Positions 27,613 to 58,095 of a DNA stretch of 64,000 nucleotides are shown in pieces; within the stretch, counting starts at the first letter, position 1, and each line of letters begins with the position of its first letter. The translations under genes and the position numbers were made by a program. The stretch lies in assembly GCA_902596065.1 (NCBI GenBank), contig CACJSL010000003.1:1087-65086 (forward strand). Direction: 5' to 3'. The DNA comes from an uncultured Alphaproteobacteria bacterium (lineage in GTDB: Bacteria > Pseudomonadota > Alphaproteobacteria > HIMB59 > GCA-002718135). The notes under the pieces were generated by a model. The model was given only the letters and a program-made list of their open reading frames with translations. It did not search any database and was not told the origin of the DNA.

Positions 27613-28545
27613 TTATTTTCTTAAGTGATAATCTTTAGCAATTTGAATATCTTTATTTATTTGTTCAACCAAATAATCAAAGGTTTCAAATTTCTTTTCA
27701 CCCCTAATAAATGCAAGAAATTCAACAGTCAAATAGTTACCATAGATATCTCTATCAAAATCAAATAGATGTGCTTCTAACAACAATTTTTCACCTTCTA
27801 CAGTAGGTCTAATTCCAAAATTAGCGATACCTTTGTTGACTTCATCTCCAAATTTTATGTTAACGGCGTAAACACCTTTTAACGGATATATTTCATTGTG
27901 TGGAAGAATATTAGCCGTTGGAAAATTCATTTTTCTTGCTCTTTTATCACCATGAATGACTTTTCCTTGCATACTCCAAGGTCTACCTAACAATAAATTA
28001 GCCTCTTCTATTTCTCCTGTTCTAATACATTCTCTTATATCTGTAGATGAATAAGGGGTTTTAGTTTTTGGATTAGTAATTTGTTCAATTGTTTTTAAAT
28101 TAAATCCATGAATCTTTCCATGATCAAGCAGAAGGTTTGTATCCCCTTTTCTATCTTTTCCAAATCGAAAATCATAACCAACTATTAACTTTTCAACTTT
28201 TAATTGATCAACAATAATTTTTTTTATAAAATCTACCGGAGAAAGATTGGAGAGTAATTCATCAAACTTTAAACAAAAATAATGATCAATGCCTAATTCT
28301 GTAAAAATTAATTGTTTCTTTTCTTCTGAAAGAATTTGATATTGATCTAGTTCACGAGAAAAAAATTGTCTAGGATGTGGATTAAAACTTAAAATAGCAG
28401 AAGGTCTATTTAACTCTTTCGCTTCTTTAACCAATGAATTAATAATTTGCTGATGACCCAAATGAATACCATCAAAATTACCTATTGCTAAATGAAATAA
28501 ATGACCTTCAACTTTACTGTTTAAGTTAATATTATGAGTTTGCAC
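27613..28545 (-). CDS. ribF: Bifunctional riboflavin kinase / FAD synthetase
   Basis: GNFDGIHLGH, SSTDIR, FPTAN, GIRPT; GTG start overlaps the xylA stop. Confidence 0.96.
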   Translation of the reverse strand: MQTHNINLNSKVEGHLFHLAIGNFDGIHLGHQQIINSLVKEAKELNRPSAILSFNPHPRQFFSRELDQYQILSEEKKQLIFTELGIDHYFCLKFDELLSNLSPVDFIKKIIVDQLKVEKLIVGYDFRFGKDRKGDTNLLLDHGKIHGFNLKTIEQITNPKTKTPYSSTDIRECIRTGEIEEANLLLGRPWSMQGKVIHGDKRARKMNFPTANILPHNEIYPLKGVYAVNIKFGDEVNKGIANFGIRPTVEGEKLLLEAHLFDFDRDIYGNYLTVEFLAFIRGEKKFETFDYLVEQINKDIQIAKDYHLRK

Positions 28546-29858
28546 TAAAGATATTTGTTTAAAATATTTTCTAGATATTCTTGCTGACCCGACTGCGGTT
28601 TGGGTTCGATATTTTCACTAATTACTTTATTAGCTATAGTCTCTAAATTGCCTTCTTGACTATGAATAAATTTTCCTAGATTCTGATCCCATTTTTTGTA
28701 ACGATTTTGAATATATGTAGATAATTCTTTATCATTAATCATTTTTTCAACAGCAATTAATGATCGTGCAGCAACATCCATACCGCCAATATGAGCATAA
28801 AATAAATCCTCCGGATCAATTGATTGTCTTCTTATTTTAGCATCAAAATTTAATCCCCCTTGTTTGAATCCGCCATTAGAAAATATATGATAAAAAGGCA
28901 TTAATAACTCTAGAGGATTGTTTGGAAATTGATCCGTATCCCAACCCAATAAGGTATCCCCTCTATTAATATCAATACTACCTAAAGCATTATTTGCAAT
29001 TGCATAAGCAATTTCATGTTCAAAATTATGACCTGATAACGTTGCATGATTAACTTCAATATTTAAATGTATCTCATTTTCAAGTCCTGCTTTTCTAATA
29101 AGTGCTAAACAAGCAGCTGAGTCAAAATCATATTGATGTTTAGTTGGTTCGTGAGGTTTTGGTTCTAATAATATTTGACCATTAAATCCAATTTTATGTT
29201 TATGATTAACAACTAACTCTAAAAAACGAGCTAGATTATTCATTTCCAATTTCATATTTGTATTTAGAATTGTTTCATATCCTTCTCTGCCTCCCCAAAG
29301 AACATAGTTTTGTCCACCGAGGCGCATTGTAGCTTCCATGCAATCTTTTACTTGAGCAGCCTTATATGCAAAAACTTCTGGGTCAGGATTAGTGGATGCT
29401 CCAGCCATATATCGTCGATGAGAAAAAGCATTTGCTGTTCCCCAAAGTAATTTTACTTTACTTTTACTTAATTTTTTTTCCATTAAATCTATAATGTGGA
29501 AAAAATTCTTTTGTGTTTCAGAATAATTTTTTCCTTCTGGAGAAATATCTCTATCGTGAAAACAGAAAAAAGGAGTGGTAATTTTGTCAAAAAAGTCAAA
29601 AGCTTCATCTAGTTTTTCTTCTGCTTTTTCAATAGGCTCTCCTTGTTGCATCCACGGTCTTTCAAAAGTTGGTCCTCCAAATGGATCAAGACCTGGCCAA
29701 GTAAAAGTATGCCAATAACAAGTTGCAAAACGCAAATGATCTTTCATTTTTTTTCCTAAAACAACTTTATCTTCATCATAGTATTTGAAGCTTAGCGGAT
29801 TATTGCTATCAACTCCTTCATACTGAATTTTAGAAATATCTTTAAAATAACTACTCAT
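28545..29858 (-). CDS. xylA: Xylose isomerase (class II)
   Basis: CYWHTF, FHDRD, WGGREG, EPKPHEP, NIEVNH, GWDTDQF, NFDAK. Confidence 0.96.
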   Translation of the reverse strand: MSSYFKDISKIQYEGVDSNNPLSFKYYDEDKVVLGKKMKDHLRFATCYWHTFTWPGLDPFGGPTFERPWMQQGEPIEKAEEKLDEAFDFFDKITTPFFCFHDRDISPEGKNYSETQKNFFHIIDLMEKKLSKSKVKLLWGTANAFSHRRYMAGASTNPDPEVFAYKAAQVKDCMEATMRLGGQNYVLWGGREGYETILNTNMKLEMNNLARFLELVVNHKHKIGFNGQILLEPKPHEPTKHQYDFDSAACLALIRKAGLENEIHLNIEVNHATLSGHNFEHEIAYAIANNALGSIDINRGDTLLGWDTDQFPNNPLELLMPFYHIFSNGGFKQGGLNFDAKIRRQSIDPEDLFYAHIGGMDVAARSLIAVEKMINDKELSTYIQNRYKKWDQNLGKFIHSQEGNLETIANKVISENIEPKPQSGQQEYLENILNKYL

Positions 29859-30920: not shown

Positions 30921-31048
30921 GATGATTTTTTACACTATTTCTTAATAAAAATACATATAATCATTTGATATAATATATTTATCATTTTTTCTCTTGTAAT
31001 TAATTGTTTTTACATTTTAATTTTTTTATAATATTTTTTGGAGGTAAT

Positions 31049-31876
31049 ATGAAAAGAAAAAAATTAACAACTTATGATTATTTAGCTTGTAAAGGAAAAA
31101 GGCAACTAAGTAATTTGTTTGTTCACAACAAGGAAGAAGCGGCAGCGGCTGAGGAAGCTGGTATTGATTTTATAGTTGGAGCTCATGATAATCCTAAATT
31201 TGAAATTAATGCTTCATTTGAAGAAGTAAAAAGAATTCGAGAAGCTGCTCCAAGTTGTTATATGCAATCAGGGGCAAGTATTCCTGCAGCATCAGAATAT
31301 GAAGCAATTAAATTTGCTCATAAGTATCTAGAGTTTGGTGTTGATTGTATTTATGTTGGAAACTATAGCTTAGAATGGATCAAGGCTATGCGACGTGAAA
31401 ATATACCAACAATTGGTCATTGTGGTTTAATCCCTGGTAAGGCCACTTGGATAGGTGGACACAGAGCAATAGGAAGAAATGCAGAAGAAGCAATTGGGGT
31501 TCTTCGTCACACATTAGAATTACAAGATGCAGGAGTAGTAGGAGTTGAATTTGAAGTTGTTCCTCCAAAAGTTGCAGCAGTTGTTACAAAAAAAACTGAC
31601 ATTATTATTATGTCAATGGGCAGTGGTTCTGATTGTGATGCTCAATTTTTATTTTCAAATGATGTATTAGGTTGGACTGAAGGTCATACCCCAAGACATG
31701 CTAGAGTATATAGAAATTTTAAAGCAGAATACGAGCGTTTACAAAAAGAAAGAGTAGCCGCATTTAAAGAATTTCATCAAGATACTCTCGATAAAAACTT
31801 TAATGATCCTAAAATTACAGTTTCTATTGAAGATAGAGAATATGATAAATTTTTAGAAATGGCAGAAAAAATATAA
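31049..31876 (+). CDS. Divergent PanB (ketopantoate hydroxymethyltransferase)-fold protein #1
   Basis: GHCGLIP, EFEVVP, MGSG..CDAQ, DVLG; GDS motif absent; GGAGG RBS before ATG 31049. Confidence 0.8.
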   Translation: MKRKKLTTYDYLACKGKRQLSNLFVHNKEEAAAAEEAGIDFIVGAHDNPKFEINASFEEVKRIREAAPSCYMQSGASIPAASEYEAIKFAHKYLEFGVDCIYVGNYSLEWIKAMRRENIPTIGHCGLIPGKATWIGGHRAIGRNAEEAIGVLRHTLELQDAGVVGVEFEVVPPKVAAVVTKKTDIIIMSMGSGSDCDAQFLFSNDVLGWTEGHTPRHARVYRNFKAEYERLQKERVAAFKEFHQDTLDKNFNDPKITVSIEDREYDKFLEMAEKI

Positions 31877-31885: not shown

Positions 31886-32866
31886 TTATTTTATTTTTAC
31901 TTTGTAATAACCATTGGGATCAGTTGCCAGCCTTATAACAGCAGGTAATATGGTTTTATAAAAATCATATAGACCGTTAAAAGGTTTGGGAAGTTGATCT
32001 TTGATTTCATTTTGTAGTTTTTTTAAATTATAAGAAGGAATCATAGGGAACATATGATGCTCTAAATGGTATTCCATTTTCCAGTATAAAAAACTCAGTA
32101 TAGGATTAATCTTAATTGAGTATGTGCTTAAGCGATGATCTTTAGTATCAACTTTTGCAGCTAAATGTTGCGTTACATTAACCATAAACCAAATTGGCTT
32201 TCCAATATATGTTGGTAAAATAATATATAATATTGGTAAAATGGACCAAATATAATAAGAATATAAAAAAACACATATCCATATAAAAACATAAAAACGT
32301 GAATTCCAAAGAATTTTCTTTTTTTGATTTTCAGGAGCGCTAAGTTTAACAACAGGTGTAAATATTCCTAATGCATGTTTTAATACTTCAAATTTAATAA
32401 GACGATGAGGAAACAAAAGGTCTGTTAAAGGAATAAAATTTAAGAAAAAGACTATAACTTCTGTTGGTCTTGAAATTTGAATTTCATGATCATAATCACC
32501 TTCTGTTTGCATCGTATAAGTATGATGAAAAGTGTGACTCCATCTCCATCTAAATCCTTCAAAGTCACACATAAATGAGCTTATGTGATAAAAAATTTCA
32601 TTTATCCATCTTGTTTTAAAAGCTGTGCGATGAACTGTTTCATGCCAGTTTGCAACACTAAAAGCATATATTGTTCCATAAATAAAAAAGAACAATGCTG
32701 TCCACCAAGTGCCCCATGTTATGTATGCAAGATAACCAGATATGAAAAGAAATAAGAAATAAAAAAAGAAATGAACTAATCCTGGTAAATCTTTTCTTTT
32801 TGACAATTCCTTAAGTTTAGCTCTATCTATCTGTGGTTTATACCAATTTTCTAAATCTACTTCCAT
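31886..32866 (-). CDS. MocD-like membrane di-iron oxygenase #2
   Basis: HETVH, WSHTFHH, YHLEHH. Confidence 0.85.
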   Translation of the reverse strand: MEVDLENWYKPQIDRAKLKELSKRKDLPGLVHFFFYFLFLFISGYLAYITWGTWWTALFFFIYGTIYAFSVANWHETVHRTAFKTRWINEIFYHISSFMCDFEGFRWRWSHTFHHTYTMQTEGDYDHEIQISRPTEVIVFFLNFIPLTDLLFPHRLIKFEVLKHALGIFTPVVKLSAPENQKKKILWNSRFYVFIWICVFLYSYYIWSILPILYIILPTYIGKPIWFMVNVTQHLAAKVDTKDHRLSTYSIKINPILSFLYWKMEYHLEHHMFPMIPSYNLKKLQNEIKDQLPKPFNGLYDFYKTILPAVIRLATDPNGYYKVKIK

Positions 32867-33714: not shown

Positions 33715-33730
33715 TTCTGAATATAATCTT

Positions 33731-34427: not shown

Positions 34428-35429
34428 CTATATATTTGGAAGTTTTACCTCTAATCTATAATTTGGATCATAAGCTTGCTTAAAAATAGCAGGTAAAATT
34501 TCCTTATATGCGTCTAAAAAACCATTTTTTGGTTTTGGCATTTGATCTTTTACCGCATTATGTAATTTTTTTAGATTATATGCTGGTACCATAGGAAACA
34601 TATGATGTTCTAAATGATATTCCATATTCCAACATAAAAAATTTAGAAGGGGGTTTAACTTTACACTTCGTGTAGTTAAACGATGATCCATTACATTGTT
34701 AGCTAATCCTGCATGTTGAACAAAATGAACACTATGAATAAGTGTTGAGCCATAGATAAATGGTAAAAGTAAATATAAAACTGGTAACCATGTTGTAAAA
34801 TAAATAGAGGAGCTAATAATTAAAATCCAAAACAATACAAAAATTCTAGCAGATATACCAAGCTTAGAATACTCTTTTGGTGGAACACAATCTTTTACAA
34901 CTTGGGTTTTTATACCTAAAGCATGTTTAATTGTCTCTAAATGAAAAGCGACATTACTTTTATAAAAAAATAAATTTCCTAATGGTAAATGATAAATAAA
35001 AAGCCATAACAAATCTGTTGGTTTTGTAACTTGTATTTCATGATCATAATGTTCTTTGGTATGAAGAGTATAAGTATGATGATGAAAATGACTCCAACGC
35101 CAACGTATAGGCTCATAATTAAACATAAAAGAAGTTAAATAATAAAAAAATTCATTCAACCACCGAGATTTAAATGCATTTCTATGGCCACACTCATGTC
35201 TGATAGGGTCGCTGAACAAATAAATATTTCCATAAACTAAAAACCAAAAAACACACCACCATGTCCCCCAAGTTAGAAATGCCATATAACCCGAAAATAC
35301 TAAAATAACTATCCATAGAAAAATATGTTTGATGCCATGCCAATCTGACCGTTTGGATAATTCTTTTAAAACTTTTTTATCTATAGAACATTTGTACCAT
35401 TGATCAACATTGCCTTCTAGAAATTGCAT
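34428..35429 (-). CDS. MocD-like membrane di-iron oxygenase #3
   Basis: HECGH, WSHFHHH, YHLEHH. Confidence 0.85.
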   Translation of the reverse strand: MQFLEGNVDQWYKCSIDKKVLKELSKRSDWHGIKHIFLWIVILVFSGYMAFLTWGTWWCVFWFLVYGNIYLFSDPIRHECGHRNAFKSRWLNEFFYYLTSFMFNYEPIRWRWSHFHHHTYTLHTKEHYDHEIQVTKPTDLLWLFIYHLPLGNLFFYKSNVAFHLETIKHALGIKTQVVKDCVPPKEYSKLGISARIFVLFWILIISSSIYFTTWLPVLYLLLPFIYGSTLIHSVHFVQHAGLANNVMDHRLTTRSVKLNPLLNFLCWNMEYHLEHHMFPMVPAYNLKKLHNAVKDQMPKPKNGFLDAYKEILPAIFKQAYDPNYRLEVKLPNI

Positions 35430-35431
35430 AT

Positions 35432-37147
35432 TTATTTAATTTTTTTATTTTGTAAAAAATTAAAATCACATCCCAATGTAGCTGGTAGTACATTCTTTTG
35501 ATACAAGCTTTTATATCCTCTTTCATAAACAACTTTTTTATTTTTGGATATTTTAGACATTCGATTTTTCATTTCTTTTTCAGAGATTAATAAATTCAAA
35601 GAATTATTTTTTACTGATAATTTTATATAATCTCCATTTTGAACAACTGCAAGAGGGCCAAGTTTATTGCTTTCTGGAGTAACATGTAAAATTATAGTTC
35701 CAAATGCAGATCCACTCATTCTAGCATCAGAGATTCTAATCATATCTTTTATACCTTTTTTGGCTAATTTTTTTGGTATTGGTAAATAACCTGCTTCAGG
35801 CATACCGGAATTACTACTAGGTCCTGCATTTTGAAGAACTAAAATATCATCTTTTTTTACATCTAGATTAGGATCGTCAATTCTTTTTGCTAAATCATTA
35901 AGTGACGAAAAAACAACAGCGCGCCCTTTGTGTTCAAACAATTTTTTTGATGCTGCTGCTCTTTTAAGAATTGCACCTTCAGGAGCAAGTGAACCGAACA
36001 AAGCAATCAAACCACCTTTTTTATTAACAGGTTTAGATTTAGAAAAAATTATTTTACGATCAATATATGAATTATTTATTTTTTTTAATCTTTGTTTTAA
36101 AGTTTGGCCAGTTATATCAATTGTATCTAAATGAAGTTTATTTTTTAATTCTAAAAGTACTGAGTTTAATCCTCCGCTAGCATTAAAATCTTCCATATAT
36201 CCTTCACCAACAGGTTTTAAATTAACTATAACAGGTGTCTCTTCAGATATCCTATTAAATTCTTCAAGAGATATATTAATTCCAATTCTTCTTGCTATTG
36301 CAGTTAAATGTATAATTGCATTTGTTGAACCTGAAATTGCTAACAAAACTCTAAGTGCATTTTCAATTGATTTTTTTGTTACTATTTTTTCTGGAAGTAT
36401 GCCTTTGTTTAACCCTAAATTTGCTGCAAGAATTCCAGTATCTTCTGAAGCACGTAAACGATCTGAATGCACTGCAGGAATACTAGAAGTATTAGGCACC
36501 ATGATACCTAATACATCTGCAATAATTGCCATAGTGCTTGCCGTTCCCATGATTGCGCAAGTTCCTGAAGTAGTTGCAAGTTTATCTTCAATTAAATTAA
36601 TTTCATTTTTATCTATTTCATTAGATCTATATTTTGCCCAAAATCGTCTACAATCTGTACATGCTCCTAATCTTTCTCCTTTATGCCTACCTGTCATCAT
36701 TGGTCCAGACACCAATAAACACGAAGGAATATTTGCTGAGAAAGCACCCATTAATAAAGCTGGAACAGTTTTATCACAGCCTCCCATTAAAATTACTGAG
36801 TCCATTGGTTGGGCAAGTATCATTTCTTCAACACACATTGACATTAAATTTCTATACATCATAGATGTAGGATTTAAAAAAGTTTCACCTAATGATATTA
36901 CAGGAAACACAATAGGAAGTGCACCTGAGGCGTGAACACCTCTTTTTACTGCTTCAAGCATTTCTGGAAAGTTTCTATGACAATTGTTATATCCACTCTC
37001 AGTATAACAAATACCAACTATAGGTTTATCTAAAGATTTATTCGAGTACCCCATAGATTTTGCAAAAGATCTTCTTATAAAATTAGAAAAATCTTTATCT
37101 CCATAATCTGATAAATTTTTTTCAAGACCCTTTTTTTTATTTTTCAT
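35432..37147 (-). CDS. IlvD/Edd-family dehydratase (probably a sugar-acid dehydratase)
   Basis: NNCH, GGCDKT, MGTASTM, GSTNAIIH, DARMSG; sugar catabolism context. Confidence 0.9.
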   Translation of the reverse strand: MKNKKKGLEKNLSDYGDKDFSNFIRRSFAKSMGYSNKSLDKPIVGICYTESGYNNCHRNFPEMLEAVKRGVHASGALPIVFPVISLGETFLNPTSMMYRNLMSMCVEEMILAQPMDSVILMGGCDKTVPALLMGAFSANIPSCLLVSGPMMTGRHKGERLGACTDCRRFWAKYRSNEIDKNEINLIEDKLATTSGTCAIMGTASTMAIIADVLGIMVPNTSSIPAVHSDRLRASEDTGILAANLGLNKGILPEKIVTKKSIENALRVLLAISGSTNAIIHLTAIARRIGINISLEEFNRISEETPVIVNLKPVGEGYMEDFNASGGLNSVLLELKNKLHLDTIDITGQTLKQRLKKINNSYIDRKIIFSKSKPVNKKGGLIALFGSLAPEGAILKRAAASKKLFEHKGRAVVFSSLNDLAKRIDDPNLDVKKDDILVLQNAGPSSNSGMPEAGYLPIPKKLAKKGIKDMIRISDARMSGSAFGTIILHVTPESNKLGPLAVVQNGDYIKLSVKNNSLNLLISEKEMKNRMSKISKNKKVVYERGYKSLYQKNVLPATLGCDFNFLQNKKIK

Positions 37148-37165
37148 AATATTTATTTAAATTAA

Positions 37166-37987
37166 TTAATTTAAAAGATTTTTTACAAATTGATAATTAT
37201 TTTTTAATATTTCTTCTTCACTAAACTCCCAACCAAAAACTTGAGCCTCATATTCTATACTTAAAAATCCATTATAGTTGAGTTTTTCTAATTCTTTGAT
37301 AATAAATTCAAAATTTATATTGCCTTTTCCAAGAGGGGGAAATTGAAAATATGGAAATTTTCCCATTGCATCTTTCATGTGTACATTAATGATTTTTTTT
37401 CCAAGAATATTTAATGAATCTTTAATATCTAATTTTTGTGCTTCGTAATGACTAGGATCATAATTTACCCAGATATTATCTTCACCTAGTTTATGCCAAA
37501 TGTTTTCAAAATCATGGTATGTATGAAAAACATGTCCTACGATTGGTTCCAAAGCTATTTTTATTTCTTTTTCAAAACCATATTCAGAAATTTCTTTTAC
37601 TGAATCATAAAAGATTTCTAATTTTTCTTCTTTTTTTTCACTTTTTTTTAATTCTCCAGAAAAAATATGAACTATAGGACATTTTATTTTCTGAGAATGA
37701 TCTATGCATTTTTTTATATACTTGATATTTGATTTTCTATCTTCATCATTTTTTTGGCTAATATCGATATGAGCGCCGATTGAAGAAATATCTAAATTGT
37801 ATTTATTGCTTAAATTAATTATTTTTTCTAAATCCTCATTGCTTGTTTGGTCATCTACATGAGGGGTGGCCCATGGCAATGTTTCAGCATTTAATTCAAT
37901 AGCATCATAACTTGATTCAGAAATTTTCTTAAAAAAAACTTCATATTTGTCTTGGTAAAATGTTACTGAATTAAAACTGATTTTCAT
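37166..37987 (-). CDS. Sugar phosphate isomerase/epimerase (IolE/MocC-like TIM barrel)
   Basis: LEP, YDPSH, VHMKD, G.G.INF, SIEYE. Confidence 0.85.
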   Translation of the reverse strand: MKISFNSVTFYQDKYEVFFKKISESSYDAIELNAETLPWATPHVDDQTSNEDLEKIINLSNKYNLDISSIGAHIDISQKNDEDRKSNIKYIKKCIDHSQKIKCPIVHIFSGELKKSEKKEEKLEIFYDSVKEISEYGFEKEIKIALEPIVGHVFHTYHDFENIWHKLGEDNIWVNYDPSHYEAQKLDIKDSLNILGKKIINVHMKDAMGKFPYFQFPPLGKGNINFEFIIKELEKLNYNGFLSIEYEAQVFGWEFSEEEILKNNYQFVKNLLN

Positions 37988-37992
37988 AAAAT

Positions 37993-39108
37993 CTAATATT
38001 TTGGAATTTCAATTTTAGTATTTTTATCAAGTGGTAAGTCTACCCATTTTTTTTCTTTTTTTGAGATATAAGAAGCAATAATAATTTCAAGTGCTTTTAA
38101 GCCATCCTCTCCATTGACTTCAACAGATTTACCTTCAATAATATTATTACAAAAACTCATTAATTCTTTTTCATAAGGATTCTTTCTTTCAGGTTGCAAA
38201 GTAATCCAACCCCCTTCAAATTCTTTCCACCATGCAGATGGGTAAAAATTATTTTTTAGAATAGGTGGAATTTCATTCAGTTTTTTTTCCGTATATACTG
38301 CCAATGGAACATTATGAAATGGGTTAATAGTTTCTGTAACAAAATGAATTGCGCCCTCTGAACCATATAAGTCTGTTCCATCTCCTATAGCTGGAGAAAA
38401 GCGGTCAGAAGATATTACTCCAGTAGAACCAGATTGCATATTAGCTAAAATATATACATTATCATCTACTTTGTGTGGTATTTCATTATGTTTAAGCTCA
38501 GCAACAATATTTTTATATTCTCCTAAAAGATAGCGAATAAGATCAATTCTATGAACTGCAAGGTCAACCATGGTTGCGCCTCCTGACTGTTCAAGATTAT
38601 ATCTATATTGAGTTGTAGCGGGATAAGCATCCCATTTTTCAGAATAAACACTTCTAAAAGAATGGACTTTTCCTATAAAGTTAATTTCTAGCAATTCTTT
38701 TACAATTTGAACTTGCGACCAATATCTCTGATTGAAACCTATTTGTAAATTAACTTTGTTTTCATTACATGATTCAATCATTTGATATGCATCTTGTAAA
38801 TTTACAGAAATAGGTTTTTCACAAAATATATGCTTTCCAGCATTAGCTGCTTTTATAGCTATTTCTTTATGAGTATCATTTGGAGTAGCAATAACAATAG
38901 CATTGATATTTTTGTCATTAATAAGTTCATCTAAATTTTTAGCAACTTTAGGAATTTGCCACTTTTGCGAACACTCTAGTGCTCTGTCTCGATTGACATC
39001 AAAAATACTTAAAATACTTGCGTTAGAAATTTTTTTTATAGCATTTGCATGACTAAGAGCAAAAATAGCTCCTGTACCTACTATTCCAAATTTAACTTCT
39101 TTTATCAT
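37993..39108 (-). CDS. Gfo/Idh/MocA oxidoreductase #1
   Basis: GIVGTG, ATPNDTH, CEKP, GFNQR, DLAVHRID. Confidence 0.92.
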   Translation of the reverse strand: MIKEVKFGIVGTGAIFALSHANAIKKISNASILSIFDVNRDRALECSQKWQIPKVAKNLDELINDKNINAIVIATPNDTHKEIAIKAANAGKHIFCEKPISVNLQDAYQMIESCNENKVNLQIGFNQRYWSQVQIVKELLEINFIGKVHSFRSVYSEKWDAYPATTQYRYNLEQSGGATMVDLAVHRIDLIRYLLGEYKNIVAELKHNEIPHKVDDNVYILANMQSGSTGVISSDRFSPAIGDGTDLYGSEGAIHFVTETINPFHNVPLAVYTEKKLNEIPPILKNNFYPSAWWKEFEGGWITLQPERKNPYEKELMSFCNNIIEGKSVEVNGEDGLKALEIIIASYISKKEKKWVDLPLDKNTKIEIPKY

Positions 39109-39124
39109 TTGTTTATAAATCTAA

Positions 39125-40132
39125 TCAATTATTACTCTCCTTAGGTAATTCTACTTTTAAAACATAAGTTGGATCCTTTGCTTGTTTTAGTACAGCCGGA
39201 ATAATTTCTTTATATGCGTCCCATAAGCTAGTTTTTGGTTTTGGCATTTGATCTTTAACTGCTTCATGTAATTTTTTTAAATTATAAGAAGGAACCATAG
39301 GAAACATATGATGTTCACAATGATATTCCATATGCCAATATAAAAAACTAAAAATAGGATTGAATTTAACTGTTCTAGTACACAATCGATGATCCATGAC
39401 ATTGTTTTTTAGTCCTGCATGTTGAACAAAATCAAAAATATTTCGAGTAGTAGTTCCATAAATAAAGGGTAATAAGATTAAAACAATCGGTAACCATGTT
39501 TTAAAGTATACTGATGATAAAATAATAATAATCCATAATAGAATATGTATTCTGGCAAACATTCTAACTTTAGAATATTCATCCTTTGGAACACAATCTT
39601 TTAAAACTGGAGTAATAATTCCTAGAGCGTGTTTAATTGTCTCAAAATGAAGAGCAGCATAACTTTTATAAAAAGTTAGATTACCTAACGGTAAATGATG
39701 AATAAAAAGCCACAATAAATCTGTTGGTTTAGTGACCTGAATTTCGTGATCAACATGCTTTTCTGTATGAAGTGTATAGCTGTGATGATGAAAATGGCTC
39801 CACCGCCAACGAATAGGTTCAAAATTAAATAAAAAAGAACCTATGTGATAAAACAGCTCATTCAACCAGCGCGTTTTAAAGGCAGTACGATGTCCACATT
39901 CATGCCAGACAGGATTACATCCCATAAAAATATTTCCATAAACAAACAAAGCTGGAATAGTCCACCAAGAAATCCATGTTACTACAACCCAATAACCAGA
40001 TAAAACTAAAAATATAATCCAAAGAAAAATATGTTTAATTCCTTGCCAGTCCGATCTTTTGGTTAGTTCTTTGTATAATTTTTTATCTATCTTACACTTA
40101 TACCACTGGTCGATTGTAACGTTCTCTTCCAT
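39125..40132 (-). CDS. MocD-like membrane di-iron oxygenase #4
   Basis: HECGH, WSHFHHH, YHCEHH; close paralogue of #3. Confidence 0.85.
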   Translation of the reverse strand: MEENVTIDQWYKCKIDKKLYKELTKRSDWQGIKHIFLWIIFLVLSGYWVVVTWISWWTIPALFVYGNIFMGCNPVWHECGHRTAFKTRWLNELFYHIGSFLFNFEPIRWRWSHFHHHSYTLHTEKHVDHEIQVTKPTDLLWLFIHHLPLGNLTFYKSYAALHFETIKHALGIITPVLKDCVPKDEYSKVRMFARIHILLWIIIILSSVYFKTWLPIVLILLPFIYGTTTRNIFDFVQHAGLKNNVMDHRLCTRTVKFNPIFSFLYWHMEYHCEHHMFPMVPSYNLKKLHEAVKDQMPKPKTSLWDAYKEIIPAVLKQAKDPTYVLKVELPKESNN

Positions 40133-40134
40133 AA

Positions 40135-40458
40135 TTATCTTGAATGAAAGATTTCATCCATATAAATCCATCCATCAACTCTTTTTCCTTTTTCTAAAGG
40201 TTCAAGCATTGGTATATGAATATCCCACCACTCTTGCATTTTTTTATTTTCACCCCATTTTTTCATATCAGCTTCTAAGTTGTCTCCATGATATTCAAAA
40301 TAACCAAACAAAATTGTACCATGAATAAATATTGAAAAATTTTTTACATTTCCTTTTGCAATGCACTCTAAAACTTCAGGCCAAGGATCAGAATGGTATC
40401 TTTTATACTCTTCAATACATTCAGGCTTAATCCCTATAACCATAGCCTTTCTTTGCAT
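40135..40458 (-). CDS. rhaM: L-rhamnose mutarotase family protein
   Basis: EYKRYH..PWPE, NFSIF, FGYFEY, QEWW. Confidence 0.8.
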   Translation of the reverse strand: MQRKAMVIGIKPECIEEYKRYHSDPWPEVLECIAKGNVKNFSIFIHGTILFGYFEYHGDNLEADMKKWGENKKMQEWWDIHIPMLEPLEKGKRVDGWIYMDEIFHSR

Positions 40459-41274: not shown

Positions 41275-42015
41275 TTAAACTTTAATAACTTGCTCCGTTA
41301 CTTCATCAAGATTTGTATCAGATTTATTTTTTTCAAATATTACTTTGCCGTGACTCATTACAACAAAACGGTCACATACCTGAAAAGCATGGTATAAATT
41401 ATGTGTTACAATTACGCTGGAAACATTTTCACTTTTTAATTCAGTTACATACTTCAACACTCTTTCTGTTTCACGAACTGATAATGCTGAAGTTGGCTCA
41501 TCAAGTAACAATATTTTTCTCTTAAAATAAACTGCCCTTGCAATAGCCACTGCCTGTTTTTGACCACCAGATAAGGCTCCAATTTCTTTAAGAGGTGAAT
41601 CAATACCTGAAATATGGACACCAGATTCCAAAACTTCTAAAGACAAATCTTCCATTTTTTTATGATCCATAAAACCAAATAAATTAGTGATTTCTCTACC
41701 CATAAAAATGTTTCGAATAATTGTCATATCATCACATAAAGCAGAATTTTGATAAATTGTTTCAATTCCTGCAACTTCTTCAGATTGTTTTCTTGTGGAA
41801 ATTTTTGTTTCTTTACCGTCAACAAAAACATTTCCGGTATCGGGAGCAACAACACCAGACATCATTTTAATTAATGTTGATTTTCCTGCGCCATTATCTC
41901 CCAATAACCCAACAACTTCATTTTTTCCAATGTGGAAATCCACATTATCTAAAGCTGTCAAATTACCATACCTTTTTGAAACATTTTTACATTCATAATA
42001 ATTGAGTTGACTCAT
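41275..42015 (-). CDS. Sugar ABC transporter ATP-binding protein (system 1)
   Basis: GDNGAGKST, LSGGQKQ, LLDEPT. Confidence 0.93.
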   Translation of the reverse strand: MSQLNYYECKNVSKRYGNLTALDNVDFHIGKNEVVGLLGDNGAGKSTLIKMMSGVVAPDTGNVFVDGKETKISTRKQSEEVAGIETIYQNSALCDDMTIIRNIFMGREITNLFGFMDHKKMEDLSLEVLESGVHISGIDSPLKEIGALSGGQKQAVAIARAVYFKRKILLLDEPTSALSVRETERVLKYVTELKSENVSSVIVTHNLYHAFQVCDRFVVMSHGKVIFEKNKSDTNLDEVTEQVIKV

Positions 42016-42018
42016 AAT

Positions 42019-42990
42019 CTAAATCCTTTTTCTAATAGTAACATTAATTATTACTGCTAATACAATTAAGCCACCTACAAACATTTCAAAATAAAAACCT
42101 GGCGCTCTTAATAAAAGTAAAAGATCCTGGATGGTATAAATTAAAGCTGTTCCAAGCATAATACCAAGAATTGATCCTCTTCCACCCATCAAAGCACATC
42201 CACCAATAACACATGCGGCTATTGCTTCTAATTCTAATCCTAGACCACCACCTGGCTGAACACTACCTACTCTACTCATAGCCACTACACCAGATAATGC
42301 TGCGCAACCTCCTGCTATTGAAAAAGCAATTAATTTTACTCTTTTAGGATTAATACCAATTGCTATCGCTGCTTCAGGATTTCCTCCAACAGCAAAAAAA
42401 TGATTACCGATCTTGTGATGATGAACTATAAAATAAAATACTATTCCAACACCAATAAACCATAAAAAACTTGCATCGATAACTCCAATATCACCAGTTA
42501 AAACAGTTTTATAAGTTTCACTTTCATATTTGTATCTAAGAGATTTTGCTCCGTGATATAAAAGAGTTCCTCCTTTCCAAAGTAACATAGCTCCTAGTGT
42601 TACTATAAAAGAGGGGATGGTAAACCTGTTAACAATATTTCCGTGTATAAGGCCAGCAATTATACCTACAATAATTCCTATTATCATAGCTAAATAAGGA
42701 CTTAATGCATACTCTTTAACCATTGTTGCAGTAACAATTGCACAAAATGTGTAAAGGGTTCCAACGGACAAATCAAATTCTCCGCTGATCATCAGTATAC
42801 CAACTCCAATTGCCATAATGCCAAGTGCAGACATTGATTTAAGTAGAACAGCAATATTTGCTGGATTTAAATAACGAAAATTTTCTGGGTATAATAGACC
42901 TGCAATAATAGCCACAACTTGAATAGTACAAAATAATAATAATATTCCTCCTGCAGGTTTACTTCGAATGTTATCTATAAATTTTTTCAT
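42019..42990 (-). CDS. Sugar ABC transporter permease (RbsC-like, system 1)
   Basis: GEFDLSVG, IPSFIVTLG, AVGGN, LEAIAACVIGG. Confidence 0.93.
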   Translation of the reverse strand: MKKFIDNIRSKPAGGILLLFCTIQVVAIIAGLLYPENFRYLNPANIAVLLKSMSALGIMAIGVGILMISGEFDLSVGTLYTFCAIVTATMVKEYALSPYLAMIIGIIVGIIAGLIHGNIVNRFTIPSFIVTLGAMLLWKGGTLLYHGAKSLRYKYESETYKTVLTGDIGVIDASFLWFIGVGIVFYFIVHHHKIGNHFFAVGGNPEAAIAIGINPKRVKLIAFSIAGGCAALSGVVAMSRVGSVQPGGGLGLELEAIAACVIGGCALMGGRGSILGIMLGTALIYTIQDLLLLLRAPGFYFEMFVGGLIVLAVIINVTIRKRI

Positions 42991-43021
42991 ATAAAATCTT
43001 ATTCAGTATTCTTGTTATAAG

Positions 43022-43047
43022 TGTAGCGGCAATATTTTGCCGCTACA
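43022..43047. terminator. Stem-loop between SBP and permease (system 1)
   Basis: TGTAGCGGCAA-TATT-TTGCCGCTACA: perfect 11-bp stem. Confidence 0.75.
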
Positions 43048-43071
43048 ATAATTTTTTTTGTCTTATACAGA

Positions 43072-44037
43072 TTATCTAGTGATACCAGCCCATTTAAATG
43101 CTGATTCAACATTAGATTTATCAACTAAACCTGATCCACCAGTATTCATGTCAGCTGGAAGCAGACCATATTTTAAATATTGAGCTACCATTGTAACAGA
43201 CATATAACCTTGGTGATAAGGTTGTTGATCCACTGTTGCTGTAAGAGATCCGTTAGCAATATTATCCAAAATTTCTGGAGTAATATCGTATCCACCAACT
43301 GGAATATCTAAGCCAGCTTCTTCAACTGCACGTACAGCAACTGAAGTTGGTGTAGAACCTAAGCCTATAACAGCTTTAGTTTCCGGATGTCCTAAAAGAT
43401 ATTGAACCATAATGTTCAACGCTTCAGAGTGGTCAGTACCTGTTCCAAGAATTTCAGTTGTACCACCATTTGCAGTAATTGCATTATTTACACCTTCGTG
43501 TCTTTGTACTGCATACACTGCTTCTGGAAATTCAACTGGTGTAAACACATGATCACCAGCTTTTAAACCATGTTCAGCAATCATACGTTCACCAAGAGTT
43601 TCACCTGTTTCAATAAAGAACTGTCCAACATACGCCATACGACAGTTACCTTTACCTCTTTGAGAATCATCAATATTATGAAGTACAACTGGAATGCCAG
43701 CGTCCATAGCTTTACAAACTATTTCATCAAATGCATCATCATCCCAAACAGTCATAGCAATACCATCAACTTGGTTTGCTATTGCAGTTTCTAGAATGTC
43801 ATTTGTTTTAGCTGTATCTGAATCACCAAATTCCATATACATGCTTATACCTTGATCTTCTGCTGCATCATGCGCACCATTGATTGAAGGAACAAAAAAT
43901 TCTACATCTTCAGCAGTCCATATTAAAAATAAAATATTAATATCAGACCAGTCATTGTCAGAATCTTTATCAATTGCTTTGGCACTAGTGAAAGAAAACA
44001 CAAGAGCGCACAAAGTCATTAGTATAATTTTTTTCAT
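43072..44037 (-). CDS. Sugar ABC transporter substrate-binding protein (system 1)
   Basis: Signal peptide MKKII...AKA, AGIPVV, ATVDQQPYHQGY; GGAGG RBS before ATG 44037. Confidence 0.92.
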   Translation of the reverse strand: MKKIILMTLCALVFSFTSAKAIDKDSDNDWSDINILFLIWTAEDVEFFVPSINGAHDAAEDQGISMYMEFGDSDTAKTNDILETAIANQVDGIAMTVWDDDAFDEIVCKAMDAGIPVVLHNIDDSQRGKGNCRMAYVGQFFIETGETLGERMIAEHGLKAGDHVFTPVEFPEAVYAVQRHEGVNNAITANGGTTEILGTGTDHSEALNIMVQYLLGHPETKAVIGLGSTPTSVAVRAVEEAGLDIPVGGYDITPEILDNIANGSLTATVDQQPYHQGYMSVTMVAQYLKYGLLPADMNTGGSGLVDKSNVESAFKWAGITR

Positions 44038-44109
44038 ATTACCTCCTAAATAACTTAAAAAATTATTATAATATTTGTAACTAATCACATAACAATATGT
44101 TTAAGCAAC

Positions 44110-44146: not shown

Positions 44147-44254
44147 TATTTAATTAATGCATAATTATTATAACAAAATTCATTAAATCTCAGTTCTCTG
44201 TTTATTTGTTTTTTCTTTTTTTTGAGTTATATTAGATTAAATTTATTAAATATT

Positions 44255-45259
44255 ATGGTTAGTTACACATATAAATCTATTGAAAATCAGGATGATAATA
44301 TGCCTAATTGGTATAAACCTGAAATTGATTCAAAGGTCTTAAAGGGTTTAATGAAAAGAAGAAATTTGCCGGGCCTTATCAATAATTTTTGTTACCTATT
44401 ATTATTATTCATTACAGGATACATCGCATATTTAACTTGGGGTACTTGGTGGGCAATTCCTGCGTTTTTAGTTTATGGAAATATATATTCTTTTTCTAAT
44501 GCACGGTGGCATGAATTTGTTCATAGATCAGTGTTTCGAACTAGATGGCTGAATGATTTTTTCTATCAAGTATTTAGTCTAATGGATTATTTTGAAGCCT
44601 TTAAATGGAGATGGAGTCACACTCATCATCATAGCCGAACAATTCATTTAGATGTTGATTACGAAATTCAAGTTTCAAGACCAGCAAATTTATGGAACTT
44701 GTTTGTTACTGATGCTTTTGCTATTGATCGTGTATGGGCAGAATTTAAATCAGTATTCTGGCATTCTCTTGGAATTATGACTCCAATTGCAAAAGACTGT
44801 GTACCTGAATCTGAGCGATGGAAAATGATATGGAATTGTAGATTTTATATGCTTGTAAAAATTGTAGTAATTTATTGGGCTTATTCAATAGGAAGTTTTT
44901 TACCTTTAATGTTTTGGTTCACTCCATTAATTTATGGAGGAACTTTATTTCAATTTGTTGCAATGTTACAACATGGAGGATTGAAAGCAGATAGTTGGGA
45001 TCACCGTGAAAGTACTAGAACGGTATATTTAAATCCAATATTGGGATGGTGTATGTATATGAATATGCAATACCATATTGAGCATCATATTTTTCCTCAA
45101 GTTCCATTTTATAACTTACCGAAACTTCACAAAATTGTAAAAGATCAAATGCCTCCACCTAATACGAGTTTTTTTAATGGCATGAAAGAAATGATTCCCG
45201 CAATTATTAAACAATCAAAAGATCCAAAATATCATTTACCTAGAGAACTACCTGCATAA
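44255..45259 (+). CDS. MocD-like membrane di-iron oxygenase #5
   Basis: HEFVH, WSHTHHH, YHIEHH; start MVSYTYK chosen by similarity to the #1 N-terminus. Confidence 0.85.
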   Translation: MVSYTYKSIENQDDNMPNWYKPEIDSKVLKGLMKRRNLPGLINNFCYLLLLFITGYIAYLTWGTWWAIPAFLVYGNIYSFSNARWHEFVHRSVFRTRWLNDFFYQVFSLMDYFEAFKWRWSHTHHHSRTIHLDVDYEIQVSRPANLWNLFVTDAFAIDRVWAEFKSVFWHSLGIMTPIAKDCVPESERWKMIWNCRFYMLVKIVVIYWAYSIGSFLPLMFWFTPLIYGGTLFQFVAMLQHGGLKADSWDHRESTRTVYLNPILGWCMYMNMQYHIEHHIFPQVPFYNLPKLHKIVKDQMPPPNTSFFNGMKEMIPAIIKQSKDPKYHLPRELPA

Positions 45260-45264: not shown

Positions 45265-46278
45265 ATGCAAATTGATGATAGTAAATTTGGCTCACGTAAT
45301 AAGAGAGGTGATTGGAAACCATATAAGCTTTCATCAAACATTCCTTTTTTTGACTGGCCATTTAGCATAACTAAAAATCTAAAATGGTTATTGGGCATTC
45401 CTGGATACATTATACCATGGACATTTTTTTATGGGTTAATTGCAGTTATCCTGTGGGTTTATTTTACCCCTCCAATTGAAACATTAAAAAATTTTCATTT
45501 TAACTGGTTTTTTTATCTTTTGGTTAGAAATTTAATAATAACCATCATATGTGCCGGAGGACTTCACTTTTTTTTATATATAAAAAAAACACAAGGCAAT
45601 TCATTCAAATTTAATGCCAAAGGGATGGAAAAAAATAATAAGAATTTTTATTTTAAAGATCAAACATTAGATAATATATTTTGGACTTTATGCAGTGGTG
45701 TTCCAATTTGGACAGCTTATGAAGCTTTTTCTTTATGGGCTTTTGCAAATGGTTATTTTTTAGGCCTTGAGTGGAGTATGCATCCAATTTATTTAGGGCT
45801 AACTTTTTTATTTCTTCCTTTATTTAGAGAAGTGCATTTTTACTTTGTTCATAGATTGTTACACATCCCCTTGCTTTATAATTTCTCTCATTACATTCAT
45901 CATAAAAATGTTAATCCAGGTCCTTGGTCCGGAATAGCTATGCACTGGTTTGAGCATATATTATATTTTTCAGGTACATTAATTCATTTTATAATTCCTG
46001 CACATCCAGTACATGCTGTTTTTCAATTACTTCATGCAGGAATAGGTCCATTATTTCATGGACACATAGGTTTTGAAAAAATTCAAATAGGAAAAATTGG
46101 TATTGATACTCACAGTCATGCTCATTATTTACATCATAAATATTTTGAGTGTAATTATGCCGATGGAGCAATACCTTTAGATAAATTTTTTGGAACCTTT
46201 CATAACGGATCAGATGAGTCTCAAGAAAAGATGGTAGAAAGATATAAAATTAGAATGAAAAAAATGAGGTCTACTTAA
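45265..46278 (+). CDS. Sterol desaturase / fatty acid hydroxylase superfamily di-iron enzyme #1
   Basis: HFYFVHRLLH, HYIHH, PWSGIAMH, HYLHH, YFECNY. Confidence 0.85.
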   Translation: MQIDDSKFGSRNKRGDWKPYKLSSNIPFFDWPFSITKNLKWLLGIPGYIIPWTFFYGLIAVILWVYFTPPIETLKNFHFNWFFYLLVRNLIITIICAGGLHFFLYIKKTQGNSFKFNAKGMEKNNKNFYFKDQTLDNIFWTLCSGVPIWTAYEAFSLWAFANGYFLGLEWSMHPIYLGLTFLFLPLFREVHFYFVHRLLHIPLLYNFSHYIHHKNVNPGPWSGIAMHWFEHILYFSGTLIHFIIPAHPVHAVFQLLHAGIGPLFHGHIGFEKIQIGKIGIDTHSHAHYLHHKYFECNYADGAIPLDKFFGTFHNGSDESQEKMVERYKIRMKKMRST

Positions 46279-47697: not shown

Positions 47698-48678
47698 TTA
47701 ATTTTTAAAAAGTTTTTTATGAGAATCTTTCGTTCCATTATGAAAAGATCCAAACCATTTATCTAGCGGTATTGTAAGCTCTCCATAATTACATTCGAAA
47801 TATTTGTGGTGCAAATAGTGAAAATAAGAAGCATTAGGTAGAGCATATCCATTTTTTTTATTAACTACAAGTTGATCATATCCTGAATGACCTTGAATTG
47901 CTCTTAATGCAGTTTGTTGAATATGAAAAATAAAGTGTATAGGGTGCGTAGGTACAACAAAGTGAATTAATAGTGTACTAAAATAAAATACATGTTCTAT
48001 AGGATGCATTGATAATCCTGACCACGGCCCAGTATTAACATTTCTGTGATGTAAAAAATGAAAAGTTTTATAAAATATTTTCCAATGACTTATACGATGA
48101 GTTACATAAAAATGAAAAACTTGCCAAACAGGAATAAGTAAAAAAATTAAACAAAATAAAATAGGTGTTTCAATCCAATTAAGCATAGGGAATAATAAGT
48201 AATCATTAGCAAATGCCCACATGACAAAAACTTCGTAGGCTGTCATGATAGGAGCTGCACTAAACACACTCCAAAAAATATTTTCTTTTGTTTGGCTTCC
48301 TAAAAACCATGCTTTTTTTTCTTTACCTAAAGGGGCAAGATTATATTTAAATTTGTCATCTTGGCTTCTTAAGATAAAAAATCTTGTATGCCAAAAACTA
48401 GCTAACAATATAATTAAAAACACATTTCTAAAAAATACAATTAAAATCCAATCTAAATCAAAAGTAGACCAGCTGGACATTGCAGGTTGAAAAAAATAAT
48501 AACTTATAAAGGCTATACCGATATAAAATAAATTCCATGGCCAAATATAACCAGGAAATTTTAATAACCAAGCTAAGAAAGCTTTTGGTTTAGGGGGCCA
48601 AACAAAAATTGGATCAAAATCCAAAATCTTTCTTGGATGATATCCTCCTCTGGGATCTAAAAAAATATCTTCTTTCAT
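47698..48678 (-). CDS. Sterol desaturase / fatty acid hydroxylase superfamily di-iron enzyme #2
   Basis: HFYVTHRISH, HFLHH, PWSGLSMHP, HYLHH. Confidence 0.85.
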   Translation of the reverse strand: MKEDIFLDPRGGYHPRKILDFDPIFVWPPKPKAFLAWLLKFPGYIWPWNLFYIGIAFISYYFFQPAMSSWSTFDLDWILIVFFRNVFLIILLASFWHTRFFILRSQDDKFKYNLAPLGKEKKAWFLGSQTKENIFWSVFSAAPIMTAYEVFVMWAFANDYLLFPMLNWIETPILFCLIFLLIPVWQVFHFYVTHRISHWKIFYKTFHFLHHRNVNTGPWSGLSMHPIEHVFYFSTLLIHFVVPTHPIHFIFHIQQTALRAIQGHSGYDQLVVNKKNGYALPNASYFHYLHHKYFECNYGELTIPLDKWFGSFHNGTKDSHKKLFKN

Positions 48679-48762: not shown

Positions 48763-49503
48763 TTAAGCAGTTTCTATAGCGCCAGTTATAAGTGCTGTAA
48801 CTTCTTCAGGAGAGCTATTTTTAGCCAATTTATTAGCAACTAGTTTTCCTCTTCTTAATACTGCAATTCTATCACTAACAGCAAAAACATCTGGCATTCT
48901 ATGGCTTATTATAACAACTGAGATTCCTTGTTTCTTTAATTGTCTAATTAATTCCAATACTTCGGCAACCTGTCTTACACTAATTGCTGCAGTAGGCTCG
49001 TCTAATAAAACAACTTTTGCTTTGGATAATTTCGTTCTTGCTAAAGCAACAGCTTGCCTTTGTCCTCCAGACATCATCCTAACAGTTTCATTTGGCAAAG
49101 TTTCTGATTTTAATTCAGCAAATAATTGTTTTGCTTTTTCAAACATTTTTGTAAAATCAATTAATCCAAATGGACCTATTTTTTTCTTTGGCTCTCTTGT
49201 TAAAAAAATATTTGATGCAGCTGTAAGATTATCACACAAAGCTAAATCTTGATAAACAACTTCAATACCTTTATTTCGAGCATCCATAGGTTTATTAAAT
49301 TCAACATTTTGATCTTCAAAAAGCATTTCTCCATCTGATTGTTTAAAGTTACCAGCAATGATTTTAATTAAAGTTGATTTGCCTGCTCCATTGTCTCCCA
49401 TTAAACCAAGCACCTCACCTTCTTTTAAATCTAAACTCACTCCATCTAGTGCTACTATGGCTCCAAAATTTTTAGAAATATTTTTTAAATTTAAAATTGT
49501 CAT
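48763..49503 (-). CDS. Sugar ABC transporter ATP-binding protein (system 2)
   Basis: GDNGAGKST, MSGGQRQ, LLDEPT. Confidence 0.93.
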   Translation of the reverse strand: MTILNLKNISKNFGAIVALDGVSLDLKEGEVLGLMGDNGAGKSTLIKIIAGNFKQSDGEMLFEDQNVEFNKPMDARNKGIEVVYQDLALCDNLTAASNIFLTREPKKKIGPFGLIDFTKMFEKAKQLFAELKSETLPNETVRMMSGGQRQAVALARTKLSKAKVVLLDEPTAAISVRQVAEVLELIRQLKKQGISVVIISHRMPDVFAVSDRIAVLRRGKLVANKLAKNSSPEEVTALITGAIETA

Positions 49504-49507
49504 TTTG

Positions 49508-50485: not shown

Positions 50486-50511
50486 ATTTTTTTCCTCATC
50501 TAATTTTTTAA

Positions 50512-50544
50512 AAAAAGGGACATATATTTGTAATGTCCCTTTTT
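50512..50544. terminator. Stem-loop between SBP and permease (system 2)
   Basis: AAAAAGGGACAT-N9-ATGTCCCTTTTT: 12-bp stem with a T-tract on the - strand. Confidence 0.7.
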
Positions 50545-50563
50545 ATATTAATTAAGTTTCACT

Positions 50564-52656: not shown

Positions 52657-52834
52657 AATTTATATATGATGAATATAATACACAAAAAAATATTTCAATA
52701 GCAATTATCAATAGATATATTTCATTATTAATTATGCTTATAGATATTATATATAATCCTTAGGTATACTTTTAAATATACAAAAAAATCTTTTTGTCAT
52801 AGTTTCCATGCAGATTTATTAAATGGAGGATTTA

Positions 52835-53833: not shown

Positions 53834-53844
53834 AATATTGATTT

Positions 53845-53873
53845 TATAGTGGCCTAAATATTAGGCCACTATA
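53845..53873. terminator. Stem-loop between SBP and permease (system 3)
   Basis: TATAGTGGCCTAA-ATA-TTAGGCCACTATA: perfect 13-bp inverted repeat. Confidence 0.75.
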
Positions 53874-53898
53874 CAAATTCACTTTATTTAATCTAATT

Positions 53899-57774: not shown

Positions 57775-58095
57775 ATGAATAGTGAAAACAAACAATGGAT
57801 TGAGGTAGGTACTACTGACCAAATAGACATGGAAGATTTAATTCGTTTTGACCATGAAGGTAAGACATATGCTATTTACCACATAGAAGATGGTTTTTAC
57901 GCTACCGATGGTATTTGTACACATGAAGCAGTACATCTAGAAGAAGGGATAGTAATGGACGATGAAATTGAATGTCCAATGCATCAAGGAATATTTAATA
58001 TTAAAACTGGAAAAGCTATGGGACCACCAGTTTGTATAGATCTAAAAACTTATCAAGTTAAAGTTGAAGAAAATAAAATTTATATTGAAATTTAA
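57775..58095 (+). CDS. mocE: MocE-type Rieske [2Fe-2S] ferredoxin
   Basis: RFDHEGKTYAIY, ATDGICTHE, ECPMHQG, PPVC.DLKTY, as I recall the MocE family pattern. Confidence 0.87.
   Translation: MNSENKQWIEVGTTDQIDMEDLIRFDHEGKTYAIYHIEDGFYATDGICTHEAVHLEEGIVMDDEIECPMHQGIFNIKTGKAMGPPVCIDLKTYQVKVEENKIYIEI

Follow-up and report, generated by a model that had tools for sequence, protein, structure and literature searches.

PanB (ketopantoate hydroxymethyltransferase; EC 2.1.2.11) transfers a hydroxymethyl group from methylene-THF onto a Mg-bound keto-acid, and in the E. coli enzyme we take D45, D84 and E114 to be the Mg ligands, S46 and K112 to bind the carboxylate of the keto-acid, and E181 to be the base. 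According to the available portion of PMC7770189, the metal drives enolisation in PanB; the available text of PMC4814558 deals with canonical PanB only. Rhizobium etli CFN42 carries a second panB-like gene, RHE_PE00443, which, in the accessible sections of PMC3082293, failed to complement a panB mutant (data not shown there) and had no detected metal site; those sections assign it no function and leave its position after mocDEF unmentioned.

The other described systems with which the present locus can be compared deal with methyl groups and formaldehyde. Oxidation of such an O-methyl group yields a hemiacetal and then formaldehyde, which hemiacetals shed without an enzyme; rhizobial mocDEF reportedly has a role in pinitol use, and the demethylase role of MocDEF reportedly goes back to Bahar in 1998. 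The available part of a review that cites earlier work (PMC13434037) states that MocDEF demethylates 3-O-methyl-scyllo-inosamine, a rhizopine. As far as the rhizopine literature was accessible, the unit is given as mocDEF only, and the accessible main texts of PMC10107442, PMC5132102, PMC5789663 and PMC3538637 contain no 'hydroxymethyl' terms, although the moc gene maps of PMC10107442 and a figure of PMC3538637 could still show a PanB-like gene. DmmD and GcvT-domain subunits are proposed to conjugate formaldehyde with THF, a role deduced in the case of DmmD (PMC5520151, in the part available); DmmD resembles the proteins described below as a non-essential companion of a demethylating oxygenase with the role that we propose for them, but has an unrelated GcvT fold and amine substrates. 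Fae speeds a formaldehyde–pterin condensation once thought spontaneous, but acts on tetrahydromethanopterin, and the same source, in its accessible sections, treats the reaction of formaldehyde with THF as spontaneous and too slow in vivo for growth, leaving open an uncharacterised enzyme (PMC7073904).

The DNA analysed here (the window) is a stretch of 64,000 nucleotides from an uncultured HIMB59-lineage alphaproteobacterium, and it encodes two PanB-like proteins of 275 aa each: P0001 (#1; 31049..31876, plus strand; defined by its ORF, Pfam, a structure model and alignment) and P0002 (#2; 55618..56445, plus strand). The two are 56% identical and both genes are intact; for #1, a ribosome-binding-site-like GGAGG at 31040..31044 (plus strand) favours the ATG at 31049 over an upstream TTG at 31004. 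Four PanB-like genes of the same clade are present in the source genome, which is 68% complete, and the loci closest to the window genes come from uncultured marine Alphaproteobacteria, including one HIMB59 and one Pelagibacteraceae member. Gene #1 may be transcribed: RNA assemblies from 2 studies gave contigs that overlap it in part, in 3 or 4 of the 4 runs, at near-zero depth in X1.

Both proteins score above the gathering threshold of Pfam PF02548 (112.6 and 142.9 vs 28.7), which is the only Pfam family matched at E 0.001, with no GCV_T domain; neither matches the Fae family in Pfam or NCBIfam, and no sequence relation of the clade to Fae was found. Both miss the NCBIfam cut-offs for PanB, TIGR00222 (85.2 and 107 vs 207.55) and NF001452 (98.8 and 124.5 vs 272), with scores that reach at best about half of what is required. 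By sequence, their only relatives of solved structure are five PanB sequences. The structure prediction proposed in the first-pass annotation confirms the PanB fold: the AlphaFold model of #1 (pLDDT 91) has the PanB-type (beta/alpha)8 barrel and aligns with PanB structures (PDB 1M3U, 3VAV, 1OY0, 1O66/1O68 and 3EZ4; Z 25–26) at Z 24.9–26.3 and rmsd 2.9–3.2 Å over 207–228 residues, the next-best structural family reaching Z 16.2. Public annotations and Atlas cluster names call members of the clade PanB; a phage collection gave 12 weak matches, and those annotated among the best 10 of them are PanB as well. Of 150 representatives, the 18 inspected (long or divergent ones) were not evidently fused to either an oxygenase or a folate domain; one sequence, P0123, is a near-exact tandem repeat, which may be an artefact.

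Alignment with E. coli K-12 PanB as the residue reference bears out the claim of the first-pass annotation that both proteins have lost the Mg2+/keto-acid site. D45 is replaced by H46 in #1 and Y46 in #2, S46 by D47 and G47, D84 by G75 and A75, K112 by Y102 and Y103, and E114 by G104 and N105. Matches made there by eye had led to the same conclusion of loss, but some of their registers were one residue off: in #1 the counterpart of VGDS is GAHD and that of LAD is QSG, and it is VKIE that IYVG and FYTN face. Residues were counted in 31 canonical PanBs, of which 29 come from genome loci, one from E. coli K-12 and one from the source genome itself, and in 53 clade sequences, which form one separate clade (SH-aLRT 99 in a quick tree, a fuller tree search being unfinished); 16 further rows of the tree, comprising 14 intermediate or canonical-like representatives and 2 side-group sequences, were left out of the counts. 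D45, S46, D84, K112 and E114 are invariant in the 31 canonical proteins, whereas the clade retains them in 6, 4, 1, 0 and 0 of its 53 sequences, respectively. The window proteins keep H136, G138, P141, E181, D209 and D217 (E. coli numbering), and H136, P141, E181, D209, D217 and P227 are present in 53/53 clade sequences, in agreement with the earlier observation that the HxGLxP motif, the E181-equivalent and the DAQ/DGQ..DVLG region are kept; a GxG motif is also common to PanB and the clade. The notion that a proper alignment might recover the acidic Mg ligands fails for D84 and E114, near which D/E occurs in 1/53 and 0/53 members, and holds in part for D45, since 32/53, including #1 with its D47, have D/E within one column. 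Thus one Mg ligand near the D45 position may survive in some members of the clade, the other two being gone.

The proteins are not mere site losers, as they had been described, because the clade has also gained invariant polar residues of its own. E167 (E. coli V179), F202 (V214) and H217 (F229) are present in all 53 sequences, the canonical PanBs having V, V and F at these columns in 30–31 of 31, and Y102 (at K112) and S189 (at G201) occur in 42/53 and 44/53, respectively. From the #1 model and the alignment, the new invariant polar residues lie at or near the ends of barrel strands; since one and the same model strand carries E167 and E169, two residues from each other, their side chains should face the same side. 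The clade further differs from PanB in a longer C-terminal helix and in the 31-residue stretch after strand 2, shortened to 10–27 residues in 52/53 members. Two subfamilies, of 121 and 78 sequences, each conserve their N-terminal loops, which differ from one subfamily to the other. In two pairs, formed with two relatives, dN/dS values of ~0.03 and ~0.065 indicate purifying selection. Because residues have been both kept and gained, dN/dS is low and the loops are conserved within subfamilies, the site looks like one that has been rebuilt in a working protein, instead of a dead one.

Sequences intermediate between canonical PanB and the clade (P0150, P0157, P0161, P0168, P0176, P0188, P0227 and P0234) show the stepwise loss of GDS and the gain of E167/H217, and can help to follow how the function changed. 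A separate PanB-like side group at loci L074–L078 (genomes G104, G167, G267, G127 and G281) keeps GDS, reads GCMP around D84, with M/P there, and KPQG around E114, which is replaced by Q, and is a second uncharacterised PanB variant; its genes are without moc neighbours, two of them lying beside apparent TRAP transporter binding proteins.

The published cloning primers for RHE_PE00443 have one match each and flank RHE_RS26335 on p42e, which identifies the two as one gene; it is the gene after mocF on that plasmid, and its protein falls inside the clade of the window proteins, scoring ~200 bits to both. This bears directly on the database annotation, under which the window genes would encode a redundant ketopantoate hydroxymethyltransferase. 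The PF02548 match and the names in public annotations and the Atlas agree with that assignment. We regard it as very improbable indeed, given scores below both NCBIfam cut-offs, the lost site, a canonical panB above the family cut-off elsewhere in the genome (contig C4, G000:C4) and a relative that does not complement. Because the site is lost, a canonical panB is present on that other contig and a clade member is non-complementing, the earlier proposal that these proteins probably cannot make ketopantoate is now well supported for P0001 and P0002. The clade is a genuine sister group of PanB, so far uncharacterised and wrongly annotated.

Within the window both genes stand among components of MocDEF type. 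Gene #1 lies between two MocD-like genes on the minus strand, one for a membrane di-iron oxygenase (PF00487; 29904..30920) divergent from it and one (31886..32866) convergent with it; Pfam and comparison with R. etli MocD identify five more MocD-like oxygenases at 34428..35429, 39125..40132, 51631..52656 and 59233..60216 (minus strand) and at 44222..45259 (plus strand). These window proteins are 35–41% identical to R. etli MocD. Gene #2 follows a sugar ABC ATPase gene at a distance of 2 bases and directly precedes genes for a MocF-like ferredoxin reductase (56458..57699, plus strand; 231 bits and 35% identity to R. etli MocF) and a MocE-like Rieske ferredoxin (57775..58095, plus strand; 57% identity to R. 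etli MocE), so that the order reads ABC importer, PanB-like gene, mocF, mocE. A second oxygenase type, of the fatty-acid-hydroxylase family PF04116 (Pfam), is encoded at 45265..46278 (plus strand), 47698..48678 and 58092..59102 (both minus strand). Pfam also defines three sugar ABC importers, at 41275..44088 and 48763..51523 on the minus strand and at 52823..55615 on the plus strand, the third co-oriented with #2-mocF-mocE. The binding protein of the first scores 121 on the rhizopine-binding protein model, the best in the window, vs a cut-off of 420 for the MocB family (NF052284). A sugar/cyclitol catabolic run identified by Pfam and NCBIfam (35432..40458, minus strand) comprises an IlvD/Edd-family dehydratase, a xylose-isomerase-like TIM barrel, a Gfo/Idh/MocA dehydrogenase, the MocD-like gene already listed there and a rhamnose-mutarotase-like protein. 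The window thus shares with the rhizopine mocDEF system its MocD-, MocE- and MocF-like genes, sugar-binding proteins and Gfo/Idh/MocA dehydrogenases; it differs in that seven MocD-like and three PF04116 oxygenases (29904–60216) share a single MocE/MocF pair.

Several further features of this region may be recorded. A xylose isomerase gene, over its family cut-off (28545..29858, minus strand), is found immediately downstream of one of the MocD-like genes (28545–30920 together) and may hint at methyl-pentose or cyclitol substrates; in the available part of PMC5132102, xylA2 accompanies mocDEF in Pseudomonas syringae of woody hosts, much as in the window. A pair made up of PF09948 (copper chaperone-like) and DUF1326 lies at 32902–34363 among the MocD genes. 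At the cluster edge (61441–63707 and 63750–63998) are a TPP-dependent dehydrogenase E1 alpha/beta pair, a lipoyl domain and a PhyH-family gene; the E1 pair is an extra one that scores below PDH cut-offs, the lipoyl domain is stand-alone, and the set possibly serves keto-sugar cleavage. At least three further PF04116 copies are located on other contigs of the source genome.

The association with MocD-like genes, which the first-pass annotation had singled out, holds across genomes without being universal. The order mocD-mocE-mocF-PanB-like, with a divergent lacI ahead of mocD in the rhizobial layout, is found in Rhizobium johnstonii 3841, in R. etli CFN42 and CIAT652, and in Sinorhizobium meliloti GR4; on R. 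etli p42e the operon lies between cob and nadABC genes (L043, 12801–17321). A moc gene was present within 1.5 kb of 8/22 clade loci vs 0/29 canonical panB loci, and within ~9 kb of 12/29 clade loci, with none near the other 17 (a few of them cut by contig ends); in a second sample all 20 new clade loci had one within 1.5 kb, 18 of them belonging to one family. Among 80 metagenome loci a moc gene accompanied 29 and was missing from 51, the figures for loci of 8 kb or more being 18/33 and 15/33. Matches were obtained in 28 of 400 sampled alphaproteobacterial genomes, of which 22 carry the clade, 5 the GDS-retaining side group and 1 a canonical gene; in 400 genomes of the phylum, 17/17 matches other than the genome's own came from the same class as the clade. 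Core MocD (280 bits or more, five candidates scored per genome) was found in 16/400 genomes; the clade is present in 11 of these 16 and in 11 of the remaining 384, a comparison in which the MocD model was built with two of the counted genomes and kin among the genomes are non-independent. Both oxygenase types, MocD-like and PF04116, occur as partners of the clade gene (L051, L258, L259 and L263). At L047 (G209; 9232–10922) two clade genes stand in tandem beside BNR-repeat proteins, an MlrC-like peptidase and two PhyH dioxygenases, the last of which may be oxygenase partners of a third type.

The linkage is therefore strong yet not obligatory, since orphan copies and MocD-only genomes both exist. 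Clade-bearing G119, G161, G275 and G304 had no MocD-like match above 39 bits and clade-bearing G391 none at E 1e-40; conversely, five MocD genomes (75–99% complete) contained no clade member, nor did a Caballeronia mocD-mocE locus within 7 kb. In 20 MocD loci that lack the clade, no recurrent non-orthologous C1 enzyme was seen, one gcvT (L092) being the single case. That some MocD genomes manage without the gene, together with the loss of the catalytic metal residues, would suit a non-catalytic folate carrier, a sensor or an accessory subunit of the oxygenase system. We give this explanation little credence, as orphan copies persist where no MocD was found and the new invariant polar residues at or near strand ends look catalytic.

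The neighbours of the rhizobial genes provide a link to folate. In the rhizopine-type clusters of R. indicum, Phyllobacterium zundukense and S. meliloti RCAM1115 the same PanB-like gene follows mocF and is directly followed by purU, the layout being Gfo/Idh/MocA, sugar-binding protein, PLP-aminotransferase-like (MocR-like) regulator, mocDEF, PanB-like gene, purU; the PanB-like–purU adjacency recurs in LacI-type clusters. An Agrobacterium plasmid has the order mocD, mocE, mocF, PanB-like gene, purU, folD, and folD also follows purU in Phyllobacterium. With a two-gene query of the PanB-like gene and purU, 40 of 682 matching plasmid records held at least 80%. In G564 the purU directly downstream of the PanB-like gene is 48–52% identical to the others and represents a second lineage, and in G150 purU lies 2 kb downstream. 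As a neighbour, purU was counted at 1/29 and 1/20 genome loci and in ~40/251 plasmid records, mostly close kin; neither purU nor folD lay within 1.5 kb of any of the 29 canonical panB loci. In metagenomes only a truncated piece was found, at 4/80 clade loci (L159, L163, L164 and L166, near 3569–4189), where purU is reduced to its ACT domain beyond the LacI gene of the mocDEF-PanB-like operon. When the neighbours of 100 clade loci were clustered and 52 representatives scanned, none of folD, fhs, gcvT and frmA recurred, and pieces of purU showed up there as ACT domains only. At L222 (Rhizobium sp. RCAM05350, 7992–8766) the PanB-like gene is split over two frames and purU is intact, owing to an assembly error or to a pseudogene.

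Translated searches of the window for PurU, FolD, Fhs, GcvT, FrmA and FrmB were negative, which upholds, for these six queries, the earlier statement that no other formaldehyde sink is visible there. Elsewhere the source genome has Fhs and FolD; FrmA was not found over cut-off in it or in three relatives that are 94–99% complete, and PurU over cut-off was found in 0/5 genomes tested, including the source genome (G000). FrmA was present in 7/10 clade-bearing genomes tested. In some rhizobia, purU and folD would complete a folate route to formate. These neighbours place the C1 unit in the folate route and do not identify the agent that loads it; formaldehyde capture onto THF by the clade, as first proposed, nonetheless gains independent support from them. 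Of that initial interpretation, the loss of the PanB role and the MocD linkage stand, and the THF capture draws its support from gene neighbours.

On balance we favour, by a little, a mechanism in which the PanB-fold protein joins the hydroxymethyl group (or formaldehyde) arising from MocDEF-type demethylation to THF, giving methylene-THF. ABC importers would take up O-methylated sugars or cyclitols, and a MocD or PF04116 oxygenase, fed by MocE/MocF, would hydroxylate the methyl group to an O-CH2OH hemiacetal. The PanB-like protein would hold THF in the half of the barrel that it has in common with its methylene-THF-using ancestor, PanB, and its acid–base groups (retained H124/E169/D205 and new E167/H217/Y102) would move the CH2OH unit onto THF; no enolate would be needed, so that the Mg-keto-acid site becomes dispensable. 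Methylene-THF would then pass to formate via FolD and either PurU (rhizobia) or Fhs (source genome). We argue for the condensation because FolD and PurU/Fhs start from methylene-THF, leaving this as the step between, and because the gene found there descends from a methylene-THF enzyme whose keto-acid-enolising part is lost. Subfamily-specific N-terminal loops could fit different sugar hemiacetals, which would account for four paralogues in one genome, and orphan copies of the clade would suit free formaldehyde.

The same residues, E167/H217 with H124/E169/D205, could build an acid–base or a new metal site in a folate-independent lyase, acting on a sugar either by breaking an O-CH2OH hemiacetal or by retro-aldol loss of a C-hydroxymethyl branch next to a ketone, with free formaldehyde released and reaching folate spontaneously. 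Sugar recognition would suit the subfamily-specific loops and the expansion of paralogues, Gfo/Idh/MocA dehydrogenases able to make a ketone lie near 12/80 metagenome loci, and the PF04116 partners belong to a family that includes C-methyl oxidases. A THF-independent formaldehyde aldol activity of PanB is also cited in the available part of PMC7073904. We nevertheless consider a lyase unlikely, since retro-aldol cleavage needs enolate stabilisation and the PanB residues for it are lost, several clusters have the gene in the same orientation as purU-folD, and rhizopine, the only substrate tied to such a cluster in the sources as far as available, is O-methylated. Improbable, too, is an aldolase whose metal site has moved and which acts on a 2-keto-acid further down the catabolism of sugar acids. 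Keto-acid lyases do occur in the superfamily, and IlvD/Edd-family dehydratases and DHDPS-family proteins adjoin the gene in HIMB59-type loci, but in the rhizobial operons its companions are mocDEF and purU/folD and dehydratases are missing, some HIMB59-type loci already have DHDPS-family aldolases, and the equivalents of K112 and S46 are lost. Returning to transfer onto THF, its more specific form, in which the clade would be a stand-alone formaldehyde-activating enzyme for THF (or a sugar-hemiacetal:THF hydroxymethyltransferase) derived from PanB by discarding the keto-acid half-site, seems to us possible, at somewhat short of an even chance.

Our literature search, which did not reach key earlier moc papers, returned no description of the clade beyond the negative result with RHE_PE00443 (PMC3082293). 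The clade is widespread (251 plasmid records and 22/400 alphaproteobacterial genomes), and its misannotation as PanB distorts pantothenate predictions. It is a concrete candidate for the formaldehyde–THF enzyme whose existence was left open, and one directly testable in a published E. coli C1-auxotroph; if the proposal is true, synthetic methylotrophy could obtain from it a catalyst that is missing at present. Rhizobial mocDEF operons would then have in the clade gene a fourth member, 'mocG', that had gone unrecognised, and a likely fate of the methyl group in rhizopine catabolism would be complete. For abundant marine bacteria the clade suggests methylated sugars or cyclitols as the compounds used, and in SAR11/HIMB59-type bacteria it would, if the proposal is true, be the entry point of methylated-sugar methyl carbon into folate metabolism.
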